Source: Candidatus Latescibacterota bacterium
GTDB taxonomy: Bacteria; Latescibacterota; CBDEFO01
Direction of reading: 5' to 3'
NCBI GenBank assembly: GCA_965248755.1
Contig: OZ252149.1
Location: 4,252,314-4,316,313 of the forward strand
Length of the DNA: 64,000 nucleotides
Below are positions 8,881 to 38,413 of this stretch, one piece after another. How positions within the stretch are numbered: the first letter of the stretch is position 1; each line of letters opens with the position of its first letter. A program made the translations under genes and the position numbers. A model generated the notes under the pieces. The model worked only from the letters and a program-made list of their open reading frames with translations, was not told the DNA's origin and did not search any database.

Positions 8881-9463
8881 TTTGAAGGATCCTCCTTACT
8901 TTCTTATTGACTTTATCCCAAGGTATATCTATATTACTCCTTCGTTTCGGCAGAATATAATCAAGTTTCTTTTCAAAGTCAAGCGGATTTAGTCAACGCA
9001 AAACAGTCGGGGAATTTTGATAAATGAAGCATCATCAACAGCAAACAACGTTAAGCTCCTCATCGCAGACGTGGATGAAGTCCCGACCCCACGCAGCAAA
9101 GACGATACATTGTTGGTACTAAGGGCATGTAGGCCATGTACAGAAGAAATTCAACTCCAAGGACGGAAGTGGGATTTTATTTCTGAGAGAACTCGCAAAG
9201 CTCGAGGCTATGCTTTTCTCCCAGGATGGCACGCAAGTTATCTCAAAAAAAGCAGAATGGCTAAATATACGAGGGCTTCATCAGGGAGTGGAGCACAAAG
9301 TCTCGTATGAAGAAGGTCGGATTCTCGGTCGCAGTCCATGACGTTGTTACAGCCGTAAGACAGATCGTCCGCTATGTGACCTCGCGCTCGTGTAGCAGAT
9401 GGAGCCTTCTGCGAGGTCTGTGAGATAATACTCAAAGCCAGAGGCGTAGGCCTAACGTGAGCA

Positions 9464-10273
9464 TTGCTGGCATTTGATCGTAGTTCACAGGAATCAGATC
9501 TAGAGATGACAATTGGTTATGTAATAAAAGGTGCGCTTAAGAATCTGAGACATCATAAGATCGGGAAATGTAATATATGTGGCAACTTCACAGTCTTTAT
9601 CTGCACAGACTTGATGACAGCGACCAACAACATGTACTGCCTTTTCTGCGTCAGCTCATCCCGGAAAAGACATGTTGCAAAAATGATCATTGAAGAGGTT
9701 ATTCAGGGTATCTCCTCTATCTCCAAGATTCCGAAAGGTAAGGATATCAAGATTTACAATACAGATGTAGGTGAATCATTTTATAGAGTGTTACATAAGC
9801 ACGAGTCATATATTTGCTCCGGTCTGTTCCCTGATGTTGAACCGGGGACTCAGATTAGGAAGAGGGTATTTTGCCAAAACATAGAGAATTTGACATTCCA
9901 GAACGATACTTTTGAGCTGGTAATAAGCGAAGATGTCTTTGAGCATGTAAGAGATCACGAAAAGGGATTTCGAGAGATTTGTCGTGTATTGAAAGTCGGT
10001 GGTTATCATATTTTTACAGTTCCCTGCTATTTCGATAGACCTAGCATCGCTTATGTTGATACCTCTGGCGACGAGGATGTCCATATTCACCCACCGCGGT
10101 ACCACGGTGATAAAATCCGGGGCAAGATACTGGCTTATAGGATGTTTGGGATCGATATTTACGATCTTCTCAAATCTATCGGCTTCGAAACGAAAGTGAA
10201 TTTTCCCAGATATGTGGATCGAAAGTACGGGATTTTTGATAGTCATGTATTCATCTCTAAGAAATTGGGTTAG
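9464..10273 (+). CDS. SAM-dependent methyltransferase with N-terminal Cys-rich (zinc-ribbon-like) segment
   Basis: Class I methyltransferase-like core (VISEDVFEHVRDHEKGFREICRVLKVGGYHIFTVP); N-terminal CNICG...CLFC; true start may be the internal MTIGYV. Confidence 0.6.
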   Translation: MLAFDRSSQESDLEMTIGYVIKGALKNLRHHKIGKCNICGNFTVFICTDLMTATNNMYCLFCVSSSRKRHVAKMIIEEVIQGISSISKIPKGKDIKIYNTDVGESFYRVLHKHESYICSGLFPDVEPGTQIRKRVFCQNIENLTFQNDTFELVISEDVFEHVRDHEKGFREICRVLKVGGYHIFTVPCYFDRPSIAYVDTSGDEDVHIHPPRYHGDKIRGKILAYRMFGIDIYDLLKSIGFETKVNFPRYVDRKYGIFDSHVFISKKLG

Positions 10274-10375
10274 CATCGCGTTCTAGCGATCTCTCTTGGA
10301 GTTGACTCAAATGACTTCGGGATTTTAGATAAACATGAACTGTAATTAAGCGGTTGTGATTTCAAGAGTGAACTT

Positions 10376-11245
10376 GTGATACTTCAGATACTGATATCCA
10401 TGCGGCCCAGGCAGTGGATTAAGAACTTCTTCGTACTGGCGGCCCTGGTCTTTTCAAAGAATCTCCTCGATACCGATTCCCTGTACAAGAGCCTTGAAGC
10501 CTTTGGACTTTTCTGTCTCATTTCAAGTTCTGTATATATAATCAACGACATCCTCGATCTGGAAAAGGATAAAAGACATCCTGAAAAAAGAAAAAGGCCC
10601 TTGGCCGCCGGGAAGATGAGCGTCCCGACAGCTTGGGCCGCGGCTGTCACAATGTTGTCCCTTTCCCTATTACTTTCCTTTTGGCTTAAAACATCTTTCG
10701 GAGCCGTAAGCTCTGTATACTTGGTGCTCAACCTTGCGTATTCTGTCTACCTTAAGCACATAGTTATCGTAGATGTTATGATGGTAGCCTTCGGATTTCT
10801 GCTGAGAGCTGTTGCAGGAGCTGTCGTCATAAATGTTGATATATCATCCTGGTTTATGCTGTGCACCGTGCTTTTGGCGCTCTTTTTAGGGTTCGTCAAG
10901 AGGAGACACGAGCTTGTTATCCTCAAGGAAGGCGCATCAGATCACAGAAAGTCGCTCGAAGAATACAGCTCCCTGTTCCTCGATCAGATGATAGCCGTCG
11001 TCACCTCTGCCACTTTAATTTGCTACGCCCTCTACACCATGTCGCCTGAGGTCGTACGCAAACTCGGAACGGAGCGTCTGGACCTGACCGTTCCCTTTGT
11101 CCTCTACGGAATCTTGAGATACCTATATCTGGCCTACGAAAAGAGCGAAGGTGGTAATCCCACTACGACCATCTTACACGATGGTCCGCTTCTGATAGAC
11201 CTGGGACTCTGGCTCTTGACTTTGGTGCTTATCCTCTACACTTAG
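10376..11245 (+). CDS. UbiA-family prenyltransferase, decaprenyl-phosphate phosphoribosyltransferase-like
   Basis: 289 aa polytopic membrane protein; N-terminal RPRQWIKNFFVLAALVFS and Asp-rich YIINDILDLEKDKRH motif typical of the UbiA/DPPR-synthase family. Confidence 0.75.
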   Translation: MILQILISMRPRQWIKNFFVLAALVFSKNLLDTDSLYKSLEAFGLFCLISSSVYIINDILDLEKDKRHPEKRKRPLAAGKMSVPTAWAAAVTMLSLSLLLSFWLKTSFGAVSSVYLVLNLAYSVYLKHIVIVDVMMVAFGFLLRAVAGAVVINVDISSWFMLCTVLLALFLGFVKRRHELVILKEGASDHRKSLEEYSSLFLDQMIAVVTSATLICYALYTMSPEVVRKLGTERLDLTVPFVLYGILRYLYLAYEKSEGGNPTTTILHDGPLLIDLGLWLLTLVLILYT

Positions 11246-28903: not shown

Positions 28904-29943
28904 CTTTTCCTTTTCTCCCTCTTTTTCACCTGTAATGTGTACAGTTGTCCTTCATAGACGCTCCTTACAGAAGAGCGAGCTGAAGGCGTAGTCAGGGCGT
29001 GGATCAACTGACTCGATCCCGCCAGAATCTGAGACCCTTCATATCTATTGAACCCGGGAATAATCTCTCTTATAAGTAGACCCATAGAAATAGCGCTCTT
29101 GTGTATCCTTATCATCTCGTTCCACCCTTTATGAGCAAATGAAATGAACATCTGCTGTCCTTGATCATCTTTTAGTCCCTCAAGTCCTCGCGATACGAAA
29201 AGCTCAAACCCTTCCAGGGTATAAGGGGGATCTGTCGCAAGGACATTGAAACTGTTTTGGAATCTTTTGGGAAGAGGCGTCCTCAAGTCGTGCTGCACAG
29301 CCTCGATCATCAGATCCTCTTTTTTTGAAGTGTGCGATATATAATCTACTATCCTTCCATCTACTTCCAGGACGCATATACTCCCCTTCATATTCTCACT
29401 TTTGCAATATAGCTCCCTTTTCAAGAGTCCCAGAGCCAAAGACGCCAGATCGTCATCTCCCAGGATCAGAACATCCCTGCCCTCTACAGCATCGTTTTCA
29501 TACATATACAGAGCCCTGTTCAAGGCCGTCTGTGGAGTATCGTGTGACTGATCCAGGGACCTGTCCACAGATGGCCTTTCCCTGCAATAGTGAGTCAGGG
29601 TTTCCAACAGCGGCTCTAATTCAGAAGACGCCAGGATTCCTCTCGCTTGGCAATGTGGGCAGTTAAAACGCTCTCTGCTCCATATCCCCATATCCTCCTT
29701 CAAAATATCATTTCCCACCTCCGAAAGACATAATCCGCTTTTTCTAACTAATATGCCCCTCTTTTCTAATTCTCTCCTCACAGCCGACACCACGGGCAAA
29801 GGGAGGTGGACCGACTGAGAGAGTTCCCAAAGACTTACGTTTCCCCTCCTGTAGACCTCCCTTAGAATGCGCCTTATAGCCTCAGGCCCTTCGTATATTT
29901 GTGTTGCTGCTGAAACCTCCGAAAGGAGATCGTCGCCTGTCAC
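28900..29943 (-). CDS. DUF43-family aminopropyltransferase-like protein (branched-chain polyamine synthase BpsA-like)
   Basis: 347 aa; ILGDDDLASLALG and ATDPPYT motifs; 4-nt overlap with speH. Confidence 0.55.
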   Translation of the reverse strand: MTGDDLLSEVSAATQIYEGPEAIRRILREVYRRGNVSLWELSQSVHLPLPVVSAVRRELEKRGILVRKSGLCLSEVGNDILKEDMGIWSRERFNCPHCQARGILASSELEPLLETLTHYCRERPSVDRSLDQSHDTPQTALNRALYMYENDAVEGRDVLILGDDDLASLALGLLKRELYCKSENMKGSICVLEVDGRIVDYISHTSKKEDLMIEAVQHDLRTPLPKRFQNSFNVLATDPPYTLEGFELFVSRGLEGLKDDQGQQMFISFAHKGWNEMIRIHKSAISMGLLIREIIPGFNRYEGSQILAGSSQLIHALTTPSARSSVRSVYEGQLYTLQVKKREKRKR

Positions 29944-30056
29944 TATTTTCTCACTTTCTTGCTTACGGCTATCCTTAATCTACGACTTTCAAATAAGCCT
30001 ATTTTATCAAAGTCAGCTTCCTCGTCTGCACAAATTCATCCGCCTCTAACTGTAAA

Positions 30057-32622
30057 CTATCCTGTCGTGCCGAAGTTATCCAGAAAGATCACAAAGTCAG
30101 ATAGACCTACTTCTCCATCGCTGTCCAAGTCATACGCAGAATCCCAATCGACTGAACTGGTAGTTGTTCCGAACACATCTAGAAAACGGACAAAATCGGA
30201 GAGACCTACTTCATTATCCCCGTCGAAATCTCCTACAAGGTCAGGGACGACAGTAAAGTCAGAGATATTCAACAACACTGACACACTGTCGCTCCATCTA
30301 TTAGTCACAACAAGGTCATTATTTCCATCTCCATCCAAATCCGCACTAAAAACTGACACGGGACCATTCCCAACACTATAGGCCGCATTAATTTCAAATG
30401 TCCCATTTCCATCATTCAACAACACTGACACATTATCACTGTTCTCATTAGCTACAGCCAAGTCATTATCCCCATCCCCGTCTAAATCCACACTGAAAAT
30501 TGATATAGGACTGTCCCCAACAGCATAGTTCATCTTAGGAGCAAATGTTCCATTTCCATTATTCAACAACACTGATACACTATCGCTGCCAATATTAGCT
30601 GTTGCTAAGTCATTATCTCCATCTCCATCTAAATCTGTACTGAATACTGATGCGGGTTCATTTCCAGCGTCATAGTCTGCCCTAAATGGAAATGCTCCAT
30701 CTCCACTATTCAACAACACCGATACATTTTCGCTAATAAGATTAGCCACAACTAATTCATTATCCCCATCCCCATCTAAATCCACACTGAAAATTGATAT
30801 AGGACCCTCCCCAACAGCATAGTCCACCTTAGGTGCAAATGTGCCATTCCCATTATTCAACAACACTGATACATTATCGCTGTTCCAATTAGCCACAGCC
30901 AAGTCATCATCCCCATCTCCATCTAAATCTGTAATGAATACTGACTCGGGACTACCCCCAACTGCATAGTCAGTCCTGGGTCCGAAAAGGACATCGACAA
31001 AAGCAAATCCGTCAGAGAGTGTGTCTGTCAGACCATTGGGATTTGTAACTATTACGTCTACAGTGCTAATAGGATGAGCGGGAATCACAGCGGTGATCGT
31101 ACTGGAGGATACTATGACTACGTCTGTGGCTGCTCTATCTCCGAAAGTAACAGTTGCTCCACTTTGGAAATCGCGGCCTTTTATCGTCACAGATGTACCA
31201 CCCAATTTCGTGCCGAAAATAGGATCAATAGATGTCACAATAGGGGGAACCCCAATAAAAGCAAATCCATTAGACAGTGTGCCAGCCTGACCGTCGGGAT
31301 TTGTGACTGTCACATCCACAATGCCAACGGGATGAGCGGGAGTTGTTGCGGTAATGGTACCCCAAAGTCCTACAGCTACATTTGTGGCATCGCTCTCGCC
31401 GAAAATAACAGTCGCTCCACTTTGGAAATTGCTCCCTGTTATCGTCACAGACGTACCCTCTAATTCCAGGCCAGAAGTGGGATTGATAGAGGTTACAGCC
31501 AGAGAAGGTATCACATCGGAGAGATTCAACAACACTGATACATTATCGCTACCCAAATTAGCCACAGCCAAGTCGTTATCACCATCTCCATCTAAATCCA
31601 CACTGAATACTGATTCGGGACGACTCCCAGCGGCATAGTCTACCTTAGGTGCAAATGGTCCCATTCCCATTATTCAATAACACTGATACATTATCGCTGA
31701 GGAAATTAGCCACAGCTAAGTCGTTATCTTCATCACCATCTAAATCTGCAATGAATACTGAATAGGCATGATCCCCAGCGGGATAGTCCACCTTAGTTAC
31801 AAATGTCCCATTCCCATTATTCAATAACACTGATACAGTACCGTCGAATACAGAATTAGCCACAGCCAAGTCATTATCCCCATCTCCATCTAAATCTGCA
31901 ATGAATACTGAAGAGGGACCAAGCCCGGCGTTATAGTCTGTCTTAGGTGCAAATGTCCCATCTCCTTTGTTCAACAACACTGATACATTATAGCTGTTCC
32001 TGTTAGCCACAGCCATGTCATTATCCCCGTCTCCATCTAAATCTGCGATGAAAACTGAAACGGGATTATCCCCAACAATCAAGTCTACCTTAGGTACAAA
32101 TGTTCCGTTCCCATTGTTCAATAATACTGAAACGCTATCGCTCCCTGCATTAGCCACAGCGAGGTCATTATCTCCATCCCCATCTAAATCTGCAATGAAT
32201 ACTGAACGGGGGAAAACCCCAGTGCCATAATCCACCTTATGCCCAAATGTTCCATCCCCATTATTTAACAACACTGATACAGTACCTGGGGGGATGTTAT
32301 TAGCCACAGCTAAGTCATTATCCCCATCTCCATCTAAATCCGCACTGAATACTGAACGGGGATATTCCGTAACACCATAGTCCACCTTAGGTGCAAATGT
32401 ACCATCGCCATTATTCAACAACACTGATACAGTACCTGGGGAGATGCTATTAGCCACAGCTAAGTCATTATCCCCATCTCCATCTAAATCCGCACTGAAT
32501 ACTGAACGGGGTTTATCCCCAGTGGCATAGGAAGTCGGAGGCCCCAAAAGGGCTTGTGCATAGACAGGCGCATACAAAGCGACTAACAGGATCAAAGCAG
32601 TATATAAGATTGCACACCTCAT
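30057..32622 (-). CDS. secreted FG-GAP/VCBS + IPT/TIG + dockerin-like surface protein, second paralogue, with apparent 1-nt frameshift near 31650
   Basis: ORFs 31645..32622 (signal peptide MRCAILYTALILLVALYAPVYAQA plus FG-GAP repeats) and 30057..31670 (FG-GAP, three IPT/TIG, dockerin-like tail) overlap; the frame break lies inside a conserved NNGNGTFAPK repeat. Confidence 0.7.
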
Positions 32623-32653
32623 TTTATTATCTCTTAACGGAAAGATCCGAGAG

Positions 32654-35558: not shown

Positions 35559-36407
35559 ATGGGCATTACGGTATCCTATAAATCTCTGAAAGAATCGCCC
35601 GTCCCTGATGCATTTTGGGCTCAGATCGGGCTGGCAGGTCCTGACGGGTCGGTGGATCGAGCTAAGATCAAGAAGTACCAAGAGGTTGTGGGATTCAGCC
35701 GATATATTGTGGAAGCTGTCGAGACGTTGCCCGAAGATCAGGAGATCACCATTTTAGACTGCGGCTGTGGGAAGTCGTATCTGTCGTTTGTGGTAAACGA
35801 TCTGTTGACGCGCCAGATGGGTAGGTCTGCCTACTTCATCGGCGTGGACACCAACGACGCGGTCATCCAGATGTGCGAACAGACTCGGGAGGGGCTTGGG
35901 TTCGATAATATGGTCTTTCACGTCGCCCGGACGCTCGATTTTGAGCCGGACAGAAGTGTGGATGTTGTGATCGCTCTCCACGCCTGCAACACGGCCACAG
36001 ACGAGGCCATCGCAAGGGGGATATCCCTGGGGGCCAGGTACATAATGACAATGCCGTGCTGCCAGAATCAAGTCCGGGGACAACTCAAGGATAAGCATCC
36101 GCTGGCTGACCTGACCCAGTTCGGCCTTCTGAAGTACGCCTTTGCCAGCACGCTCACCGATGGCCTTAGGTCTTTGATCCTCAAGGGAGTCGGATATGAG
36201 GTCAAGCACTTTGAAGTGGTTCCTCCCAAGTGCACACCCAAGAATGTTCTGATCCAAGCCCGAAAGATTAAGCGCAAGCGGGAGCCGAATCTGTCTGAGT
36301 ACGTGCGGGTAAGTCGTCAGTTCGGTGTGCGGATTGCCCTGGAGCATATGCTGCCTGAGGAATTGCGGGAAGTGCTGGCAAGGGCAGATATAGGATACAA
36401 TGTGTAG
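35559..36407 (+). CDS. SAM-dependent methyltransferase
   Basis: ILDCGCGKSYLSFVV (motif I-like) and DVVIALHACNTATDEAI. Confidence 0.65.
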   Translation: MGITVSYKSLKESPVPDAFWAQIGLAGPDGSVDRAKIKKYQEVVGFSRYIVEAVETLPEDQEITILDCGCGKSYLSFVVNDLLTRQMGRSAYFIGVDTNDAVIQMCEQTREGLGFDNMVFHVARTLDFEPDRSVDVVIALHACNTATDEAIARGISLGARYIMTMPCCQNQVRGQLKDKHPLADLTQFGLLKYAFASTLTDGLRSLILKGVGYEVKHFEVVPPKCTPKNVLIQARKIKRKREPNLSEYVRVSRQFGVRIALEHMLPEELREVLARADIGYNV

Positions 36408-36601
36408 GAGCGATTCACACTGCGTGCATTGCGACAGAGACGACAGCGATCTTTCGTTAATTGATTCTCCTTGACAGCCCTGCGACGAATTAGTATCTTT
36501 TAACCAAGTGCAAGGCTATTTTTTTGAAAGTAAAGGATATATCGATGAGATCTTATGGGGTATGATCCATTCTGGGAAATTACCAAGACTAAGGAACAGA
36601 T

Positions 36602-37613
36602 ATGGCAAGAGATATTAGAGACTTCATAATGAACTTGAGGTATTCACGAAAACCGGCGGACATTGTGATCGAGAATATGATTGAAGAAGTTCGTGATGGT
36701 ACGCTTATTGTCGACCACCCTTTAACGGTAAAGCAATTTCTGGAAGTCGTTGAAAAAAGGTGGGCAGAAATTTCGCCTCGTCTAATTCAATTACTCTTCA
36801 AGCTCTTACTAAGTGAGTCTGAAAAAGCAGAGCTGCCTCCATCTTCTCATGATCAAATCCGCTCTATGTTGGTGGAGATACTAGGTAAGTTCAAGACTTC
36901 ACCTCTTATTGAGGATGAAGTGGTGATAAGGAAAAGACGGGAAAAGAATCTGGAATATGCGCTGCAAGCTGTGGAGGAGATCTAAATCCAAGAAAAGGAT
37001 AGACTTCTCTTCTTCCTAGGAGCAGGAGCTTCAAAGCCAGAGCCTTCAAATATCCCGACAATAAACGAATTGCTCCCAGAGATTTGGAAAAAATCAAGTC
37101 GAATGGAATCAAGGCCTCTTGAAAAACTTCAGCTATGGTGCACTGAAAACAACATATAAAACATCGAAGAAATGCTTACCGCAGTGACCCTCTCCAATTC
37201 TATAATCAAGGACTCGAAGGTTCACGGGCTTTTTAATTCGGTACTATATCCTGACGATACTTCGGAACAGACTTCCATTAGGGACATAGACACTTGATGA
37301 TTACATTTCAAAAATGTTAGTCAAAGCAGTAGGTCAAGATCCAGAAAAACATGTAATCGCTGTTAATATTGATCACGAAGCAATCGATAGATGCAAATCC
37401 TTTATTAAACTACACGTGGAAGCTTTTGATGAAGATAAGAGGTTCTTTTCTATGCGAGGAGATGGAACCGAGCTTGTACCCAAGATAACAAGAGTGCTCA
37501 CTGAAGTCCCGAAGAAAATATCAAAAAAACGCTCAATAGACCCGTCGAACAGGAATGGAGACTCTAAACCTCCGTCAGATCTACGGGCAACCGCGGACCT
37601 CTCTACAGACTAG
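36602..37613 (+). pseudogene. degraded SIR2-like (DHS-like NAD-binding) gene
   Basis: ORF 36602..36985 ends at TAA; in the same frame follows IQEKDRLLFFLGAGASKPEPSNIPTINELLPEIW (FLGAGxS...IP...EL, SIR2_2-like); later segments in other frames include HVIAVNIDHEAIDR (TTNYD-like); at least one in-frame stop and two frame changes. Confidence 0.35.
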
Positions 37614-37638: not shown

Positions 37639-38217
37639 ATGACCCTCAAGGTCGTAATCTTCGACATGGACGGGACTATAACGAAGCCTTATATAGACTG
37701 GAAATCCCTCAGAGATGAAATAGGCATCCCACAGAATGAAATAATTATTGACTACATCGAATCTCTACCTTTCCAAGAAAGAAAAAGGGCTAACCGAATC
37801 CTTGAAATGCTAGAAGGGGAAGCCGCCCAAAACTCTGAGATCAACGAAGGAGCTGAAGAACTCCTTCAATTCCTTAAAGAAAAAGGCATAAAGACGGCCC
37901 TGGTCACGAATAACAACAGGCGGGCGATGGAACACGTCCTTGAAAGACACAGTCTGGATTTTGATATCCTGTTAAGCAGGGAAGATGGATCGGTCAAGCC
38001 CTCGGAAGAGTTGATATTAAGAGCCCTCGACCGCACAGGAGCAGAAAAAGATCAAGCCATCGCAGTGGGAGATGGACGATTTGATTTAGAAGCGAGCAAG
38101 AAAGCAGGAGTCAGATGCATTTACCTATCCAACTCTACCCCTGCGTTAGAACATAACTTCACAGCGCATACCTTACACGACGTAGTGGAAATAATAGACA
38201 AACTCACAGAGGCATAA
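37639..38217 (+). CDS. HAD-superfamily hydrolase
   Basis: N-terminal VVIFDMDGTIT (HAD motif I) and later GDGRFD; start at internal ATG. Confidence 0.7.
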   Translation: MTLKVVIFDMDGTITKPYIDWKSLRDEIGIPQNEIIIDYIESLPFQERKRANRILEMLEGEAAQNSEINEGAEELLQFLKEKGIKTALVTNNNRRAMEHVLERHSLDFDILLSREDGSVKPSEELILRALDRTGAEKDQAIAVGDGRFDLEASKKAGVRCIYLSNSTPALEHNFTAHTLHDVVEIIDKLTEA

Positions 38218-38239: not shown

Positions 38240-38413
38240 GTGCGAAAGCTTGCGCTTTTTGTCACAATTGCAGGACTTTCAGCGACGGGAGCCATTTTTT
38301 TCCTGGGAAAGAGGAGGAGGGTCTGCCCTGAGTGCAAAAGACGAGTGCAGGGTAATTGGAAATATTGTCCCCACGACGGCGCGAAGACTGAAGCCAAATA
38401 CGAATGGGATTAA
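38240..38413 (+). CDS. small membrane-anchored zinc-ribbon protein (not in ORF track)
   Basis: 57 codons from GTG with AAGGAG about 13 nt upstream; one TM helix then [19 protein letters not shown]. Confidence 0.35.

Follow-up and report, generated by a model that had tools for sequence, protein, structure and literature searches.

A probable remnant of a stand-alone SIR2-family gene between a methyltransferase gene and a HAD hydrolase gene in Candidatus Latescibacterota

Structure of the locus

The interval from 36602 to 37613 in a 64,000-nt stretch of the Candidatus Latescibacterota contig OZ252149.1 (the window, to whose positions all coordinates refer; P and L names denote the homologous proteins and loci compared with it) holds the probable remnant of a gene of the SIR2 family. 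A preliminary description of this DNA had proposed a decayed SIR2-type gene here, lying between a methyltransferase and a HAD hydrolase and lacking an obvious partner, and the peptides that it quoted, their coordinates and an in-frame TAA ahead of an FLGAGxS signature were all reproduced by translation. All parts of the gene and its two neighbours lie on the forward strand.

The reading frame is opened by an ATG at 36602 and runs for 127 codons (segment 1, 36602–36982, an α-helical N-terminal domain delimited by alignment with relatives) until it meets a TAA at 36983–36985, in frame between this domain and the GAGAS motif. Beyond the stop the same frame reads on as IQEKDRLLFFLGAGASKPEPSNIPTINELLPEIW and forms segment 2 (36986–37156, placed by alignment and by PADLOC), which contains the first Rossmann strand and the NAD-binding loop (LLFFLGAGASKPEPSNIPT...). 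It is closed by a second in-frame TAA at 37157–37159, which the preliminary description had overlooked. Segment 3 (37160–37294), part of the helical small subdomain, follows in the same frame with ...SIRDIDT as its last residues, its end being set by the ends of the tblastn high-scoring segment pairs (HSPs), and the frame then runs into two consecutive TGA codons at 37295–37300. At the junction 37294–37296 homology passes into the next frame, a +1 shift. This frame, from about 37293 to the TAG at 37611–37613, reads LDDYISKMLVKAVGQDPEKHVIAVNIDHEAIDR... and includes HVIAVNIDHEAIDR before its stop; segment 4 (37296–37613, from tblastn and alignment) comprises a C-terminal helix, a strand and a basic tail (DDYISKMLVKAVGQDPEKHVIAVNIDHEAIDR...).

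Segment 1 aligns with residues 1 to about 127 of P0083, P0047, P0063, P0058 and P0126, as a sample illustrates in which the window reads MARDIRDFIMNLRY, P0083 MPKDIKEFIEKIRY and P0047 MPRDFREFLMMLRH. By this alignment, the 127-codon open reading frame (ORF) represents the N-terminal domain conserved in the family, a part of the same SIR2 gene and no separate unit; the N-terminal region described earlier is present as stated and can be given its place in the gene. The ORF is found in public databases as the predicted protein P0001 (sources NCBI and ENA). The NAD-binding loop LLFFLGAGASKPEPSNIPT lies at about 37004–37060 and retains G, A, G, P, P, S, I and P, the residues that are invariant across alignment A5. 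By contrast, the peptide AVNIDHEAIDR, which had been likened to the TTNYD motif, is matched in the alignment to the C-terminal strand next after GYSFsDaD (P0002: HVVIIDMSQRTIDH); it is not TTNYD-like, and the true TTNYD lies within a segment that has been deleted from the window.

Homology to intact SIR2 proteins

The SIR2 identity of the remnant is best seen by comparison with its intact relatives. For profile and protein searches a repaired translation was used, which is a conceptual joining across the stops and the frame change. Searched against 5.8 billion proteins, it returned P0001 itself and three SIR2_2 proteins, and a subsequent profile search returned at least 490 proteins, mostly of 480–510 aa (amino acids). 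The repaired translation can be aligned lengthwise with more than 100 intact proteins, every one of which matches Pfam SIR2_2; the intact relatives are 480–510 aa long and up to 64% identical.

When six intact relatives were compared with the whole window by tblastn, each gave exactly two collinear matches. Residues 1 to about 240 match 36602–37294 in one frame with E values from 4e-45 to 6e-63, and residues from about 408 to 490 match 37296–37535 in the next frame with E values from 5e-22 to 6e-28; with P0002, which is truncated at its N-terminus, the values for the two parts are 5e-22 and 2e-15. Similarity of this order between the translated window and SIR2 proteins is well past chance level.

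Profile searches on the repaired translation gave a divided result. The PADLOC SIR2 profile PDLC04093 matches its residues 120–211 (E 4.2e-6), while Pfam assigns no family to the remnant, repaired or in pieces, and in particular no SIR2_2 (PF13289), because the region covered by that model, from TTNYD onward, has been deleted. A sub-threshold Pfam match to Spermine_synth on segment 4 (E 0.0025) raised the possibility of a methyltransferase fragment. This was rejected, as the segment also occurs in the intact SIR2 relatives and the match recurs in two of them; it is read as a chance resemblance between Rossmann strands.

Lesions and decay

The relatives also show what the gene has lost. At the position of the first stop they have lysine (P0048, P0063, P0058), arginine (P0047) or glutamate (P0083), and at that of the second stop 8 of the 11 relatives in alignment A2 have the glutamate of NIENIEEML. 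A single base change would explain each stop, the second as GAA to TAA. No ATG, GTG or TTG was found by reading the sequence between the first stop and the GAGAS motif.

In tblastn, the first HSP of every full-length relative breaks off at 37291–37294, and the gap between the two collinear HSPs measures 172–174 residues in each relative. P0048 residues 234–407 (P0083 236–409, P0126 245–416) have no counterpart by tblastn anywhere in the window. The frame switch at 37294/37296 thus reads as the scar left by a single loss of about 173 codons (about 520 bp) that put the rest out of frame. The “fragments in other frames” reported earlier reduce to this: the change of frame is real, and the several fragments are one switch caused by one internal deletion. 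In the relatives the deleted stretch comprises the F..LL..M helix, TTNYD, KMHGSINW, the zinc-ribbon cysteines, the VIGYSFS strand and the central β-strands. Among the residues lost are the invariant N282, D284, H317, C325, C328, C355 and G401/S403 (P0048 numbering) as well as the nearly invariant C358. With the catalytic Asn/Asp, the His, the zinc cysteines and the core strands deleted, NAD processing by the remnant as encoded would be impossible.

What has been kept is in good condition. Every family-invariant residue of the retained segments is still there and these segments contain no further frameshift, which argues for a recent inactivation. Stop-codon reassignment or readthrough was considered as well and rejected, since the adjoining HAD gene itself ends in TAA and the deletion is disabling on its own. 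As assembled, the locus has the make-up of a pseudogene, namely collinear homology to six intact genes that is broken by disabling lesions. It should therefore be annotated as a pseudogene and not as a 127-aa hypothetical protein.

The intact SIR2 family

Pfam finds PF13289 (SIR2_2) in 91 of 91 aligned members of the family and PF02146 (SIR2) in 88, all members scoring higher on SIR2_2 than on canonical SIR2 (P0048 reaches 37.1 bits on PF13289, against a gathering cutoff of 24.5), and no other Pfam domain recurs among the 91. On the CobB-type models of NCBIfam, P0002 and P0004 score 17–38 bits against cutoffs of 221–395, while the PADLOC SIR2 and Aga_SIR2 profiles match intact members with E values from 1e-15 to 1e-18. 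The GAG motif, N282 and D284 (of TTNYD), H317 (of KMHGS), C325, C328 and C355 are invariant in alignment A5 (P0048 numbering), and C358 is nearly so. The four conserved cysteines form a CxxC...CxxC module at the zinc-ribbon position, and all four are deleted in the window copy.

An AlphaFold2 model of P0048 (pLDDT 88, pTM 0.80) has a helical N-terminal domain at residues 1–127 followed by the SIR2 core, and in structural comparison the best fold match of the family is the antiphage SIR2 protein PsSIR2. An exhaustive profile search over 1.84 billion representatives yielded 114 at E ≤ 1e-30, whereas the 2,832 at 1e-10 represent the general SIR2 superfamily. The family of about 114 representatives at 50% identity is therefore small, and its spread over bacterial and archaeal phyla is patchy.

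In the literature sirtuins fall into two groups, the canonical deacylases, which bear zinc, and the immune NADases of the SIR2_2/SIRim type, of which the latter are said to lack the zinc module (PMC12700824; bioRxiv 10.1101/2024.09.18.613514). The present family combines SIR2_2 motifs with retained zinc-ribbon cysteines, so that its chemistry could be that of an NADase or of a deacylase, and this combination bears on the relation between immune NADase sirtuins and deacylating sirtuins.

The intact relatives also served to address the partner question. Eight contexts of intact members were inspected (WOR-3, Anaerolineales, Phycisphaerae, Bathyarchaeia and several contigs from metagenome-assembled genomes (MAGs) or metagenomes), and no neighbour is common to them, in keeping with the preliminary description, which had seen no obvious partner. 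Genes for HerA (HerA/DUF87), TIR, pAgo or SLOG proteins are absent from all eight. Judged by gene order, each member stands alone, with no partner gene. Upstream of one intact member lies a gene for a patatin-like phospholipase (L018:5435-6475), and downstream of another a DUF3800 gene (L003:8939-9772); both are types met in defence neighbourhoods and neither is kept across contexts.

A separate observation concerns P0003 (241 aa, L001:7433-8158), which departs from the closely similar P0004 at TTNY|E and ends shortly afterwards, and which probably represents a further copy from this SIR2 family that has decayed or been frameshifted. Its surroundings contain a Mu-like transposase (rve) and IstB pair and a ParB-like gene.

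The genomic slot

The pseudogene is enclosed by two conserved flanks of the kinds described earlier. On the left lies a gene for a class I S-adenosylmethionine (SAM) methyltransferase (Methyltransf_32, PF13679, E 4.9e-35; 35559–36407), whose product shares 95% identity with P0128 from the closest relative found; its homologues, at about 50–58% identity, are Brocadiales/Scalindua proteins, which by themselves would place the window in an anammox-type planctomycete, Brocadiales-like lineage. On the right, a HAD-family hydrolase gene (HAD_2, E 1.5e-25; 37639–38217) is the first of a HAD-aroQ-hisC-hisB block, and its start at 37639 agrees with the 192-aa orthologue in the related locus L011. Upstream of the pseudogene and still within the conserved left flank, a forward-strand TTGACA-17-TATCTT site (36471–36499, 10 of 12 consensus matches) would act as a promoter; L011 and L012 have the same two hexamers, despite the other cargo there.

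The flanks of L011 and L012 are 90–97% identical to the window at the DNA level, and the order aminotransferase, AIR-synthase-like, methyltransferase, slot, HAD, aroQ, hisC, hisB, GT9 is common to the window and both loci. Between these flanks blastn homology to L011 stops at 36549 and restarts at 37607, which delimits a lineage-specific cassette of 1,057 bp (36550–37606) with the pseudogene inside it. The cassette has a GC content of 0.412, against 0.466 for the window, and a third-position GC content (GC3) of 0.35–0.42 against 0.48–0.66 in the flanking genes. In place of the cassette, L011 (ENA ERZ25766727 ctg360826, 9002-10901) has a slot of 1,874 bp with other genes, an ABC-type ATPase of 425 aa and a DUF4276/TOPRIM-like protein of 210 aa, the final gene overlapping the HAD start by 4 bp. 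This pair, which L012 also carries, matches the PADLOC candidate system HEC-01 (HEC-01A 1e-59, HEC-01B 9e-7), an ATPase and TOPRIM pair for which the sole published assay showed no protection. The cassette thus differs between close relatives; a SIR2 remnant was not found in the relative's slot, nor a HEC-01 remnant in the window.

Signs of a dedicated mobility mechanism were sought at the locus. The cassette borders have only short repeats of chance level and no flanking repeats or att-like sites beyond these, the slot has no integrase, and no tRNA or Rfam element lies near the locus, the sole tRNA of the window being at 60.9 kb. A metagenome scan with the conserved promoter region for more slot alleles gave 0 matches. 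More distant orthologues of the methyltransferase (Scalindua and others) are not syntenic and are therefore uninformative on an ancestral empty site. A slot flanked by core genes is apparent, with turnover of accessory, probably defence-type, cargo. Since there are only two alleles, it can be called no more than a putative hotspot.

Several observations were made around the same genes. In L013, where the methyltransferase is about 57% identical, a nucleotidyltransferase and HEPN pair (MNT-HEPN type, L013:8827-9583) directly follows the methyltransferase gene, while in L017 (6810-6831), of the same distant lineage, the methyltransferase gene runs straight to a creatininase gene; the position just 3' of the methyltransferase is variable there too. 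In the Scalindua MAG GCA_031316155.1 (L016:6001-6783) the Methyltransf_32 orthologue lies within a ribosomal protein cluster, between S13 and S11, which hints at a translation-related (perhaps rRNA or tRNA) methyltransferase. Between HAD and aroQ the window has, on the forward strand at 38240–38413, a 57-aa ORF whose product would have a hydrophobic helix at its N-terminus and a zinc-ribbon-like tail of the pattern CxxC...CxxD, where no gene is called in L011. Further away, on the reverse strand at 29000–32650, internally repetitive FG-GAP/TIG-type genes give many staggered blastn matches of 70–80% to L011, with sizes of 537 and 325 aa in the window against 272, 345 and 737 aa in L011, which suggests a repeat-driven rearrangement of this block between close relatives.

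Origin and fate of the gene

Taken together, these results make it very probable that 36602–37613 is the dead remnant of a stand-alone SIR2-family gene of about 500 aa. The ancestral protein would have had an N-terminal helical domain of about 125 aa, possibly for sensing or oligomerisation, followed by a SIR2 Rossmann core with a CxxC...CxxC zinc-ribbon module. Its gene appears to have been gained horizontally into the variable slot, between the methyltransferase and the HAD-aroQ-hisCB block and just downstream of the promoter-like site, and would then have been inactivated by a TAA at codon 128, a TAA at codon 186 and the out-of-frame deletion of about 520 bp. The ancestral enzyme may have consumed NAD+ and acted alone, and a defence-type NADase of the SIR2_2/SIRim kind is its most likely nature, although the label NADase is one that we infer for the ancestor from its relatives.

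Several points weigh against this account. The stops and the deletion are those of the assembled sequence; Pfam gives no family for the remnant and the PADLOC match is modest (E 4e-6). As regards a role in defence, most contexts of intact members consist of housekeeping genes and not of defence islands. Finally, the slot is known from two alleles only, one of which carries HEC-01, a pair without protection in the published test.

The alternative that survives best concerns the nature of the ancestor, which could have been a housekeeping sirtuin deacylase or an ADP-ribosyltransferase whose loss was simple decay with no link to defence. This has a smaller though appreciable chance of being right. 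It must contend with the preference of every member for SIR2_2, the antiphage SIR2 as best structural match, CobB-type NCBIfam scores of 27–38 bits against the cutoffs of 221–395, the patchy spread of a small family over bacteria and archaea, and the position of the gene in a swap-in/swap-out slot which in the relative holds a candidate defence pair.

It is improbable that the 127-codon ORF at 36602–36985 is a functional small gene, for example a regulator or a dominant-negative partner, even though it is open, has a near-consensus promoter-like site some 100 bp ahead of it and has entered public databases as P0001. It is related only to the N-terminal domains within full-length SIR2 proteins, and short database entries with this domain alone may be fragments of longer genes. 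Since the segments after the stop show no additional lesions either, recent decay by itself would leave the frame open.

Still less probable is an intact gene in the organism, with stops and deletion as artefacts of sequencing or assembly. The source of the window is indeed one 4.54-Mb contig from a lineage of uncultured type, but the lesions are two substitutions to TAA and one clean loss of about 520 bp, unlike the homopolymer indels typical of long-read errors. Moreover, the flanking genes are of full length and collinear with L011 at 90–97% DNA identity, and the missing segment has no other copy in the window. Least probable of all is a decayed ThsA of the Thoeris system, or else the SIR2 component of a gene pair (SIR2-HerA, SPARSA) of which the second gene has disappeared as well. 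Such an origin would account for the GAGxS motif, the SIR2_2 similarity, the PADLOC SIR2/Aga_SIR2 matches and PsSIR2 as best fold match, but is contradicted by the lack of HerA, TIR or pAgo neighbours.

As a dead SIR2-family gene, the remnant is an ordinary accessory gene with little weight of its own. Its intact relatives could mean more. Somewhat doubtfully, they may be proposed as an undescribed single-gene SIR2 clade that bridges both branches of the sirtuins and acts alone as a defence NADase, with the methyltransferase/HAD slot as a promoter-proximal site where defence cargo is swapped and decays.

Comparison with known systems

The preliminary description had likened the gene to anti-phage SIR2 proteins and had named Thoeris as an example. 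The SIR2_2-type signature is present; Thoeris is not the closest system. What ThsA and the family share is an NAD-binding domain of the SIR2_2 type that bears FLGAGxS...P...L. The C-terminal SLOG or Macro sensor of ThsA does not recur among the 91 family members, whose extra domain is N-terminal and helical, and no ThsB (TIR) gene occurs in the window flanks or the eight contexts.

By fold the family is closest to the PsSIR2/EcSIR2 type of the SIR2-HerA system (Nezha; PDB 8W9L/8WLD for Paenibacillus PsSIR2, 8J4U and 8SUB for E. coli). Sequence identity is only 16–20%, no HerA lies beside any family member examined or in the window flanks, and the family adds the N-terminal helical domain of about 125 aa and the four conserved zinc-ribbon cysteines, while the window copy lacks the whole catalytic core. 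With SPARSA, the Aga_SIR2 profile of PADLOC gives E values from 1e-17 to 1e-18 on intact members, but there is no extra C-terminal domain (APAZ) and no Argonaute neighbour in the contexts inspected. Membership in Thoeris, SIR2-HerA and SPARSA thus fails because the defining partners are absent.

DSR1 and DSR2 resemble the family in being single genes in which a SIR2 domain is fused to a non-catalytic domain. DSR2 is about 1,000 aa long with an N-terminal SIR2 domain and a large C-terminal sensor, whereas the extra domain of the family is small and N-terminal, and in sequence the family matches DSR2 only marginally (E 0.0056). Canonical sirtuins (PF02146; Sir2-Af1 1ICI, CobB, SIRT1-7) share the CxxC...CxxC module with the family, as judged from the alignments. 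In contrast to them, the family proteins have double the length and a helical domain at the N-terminus, contain the TTNYD motif as in SIR2_2 together with a SIR2_2 match in every member, and score far under the cutoffs that NCBIfam sets for its models of CobB and related deacylases.

The genomic setting can be compared with defence hotspots. While only two alleles are available here, and integrase, tRNA and flanking repeats are lacking, the slot resembles the variable defence slots found between core genes in its sharp boundaries and in the different accessory cargo that it carries in close relatives.
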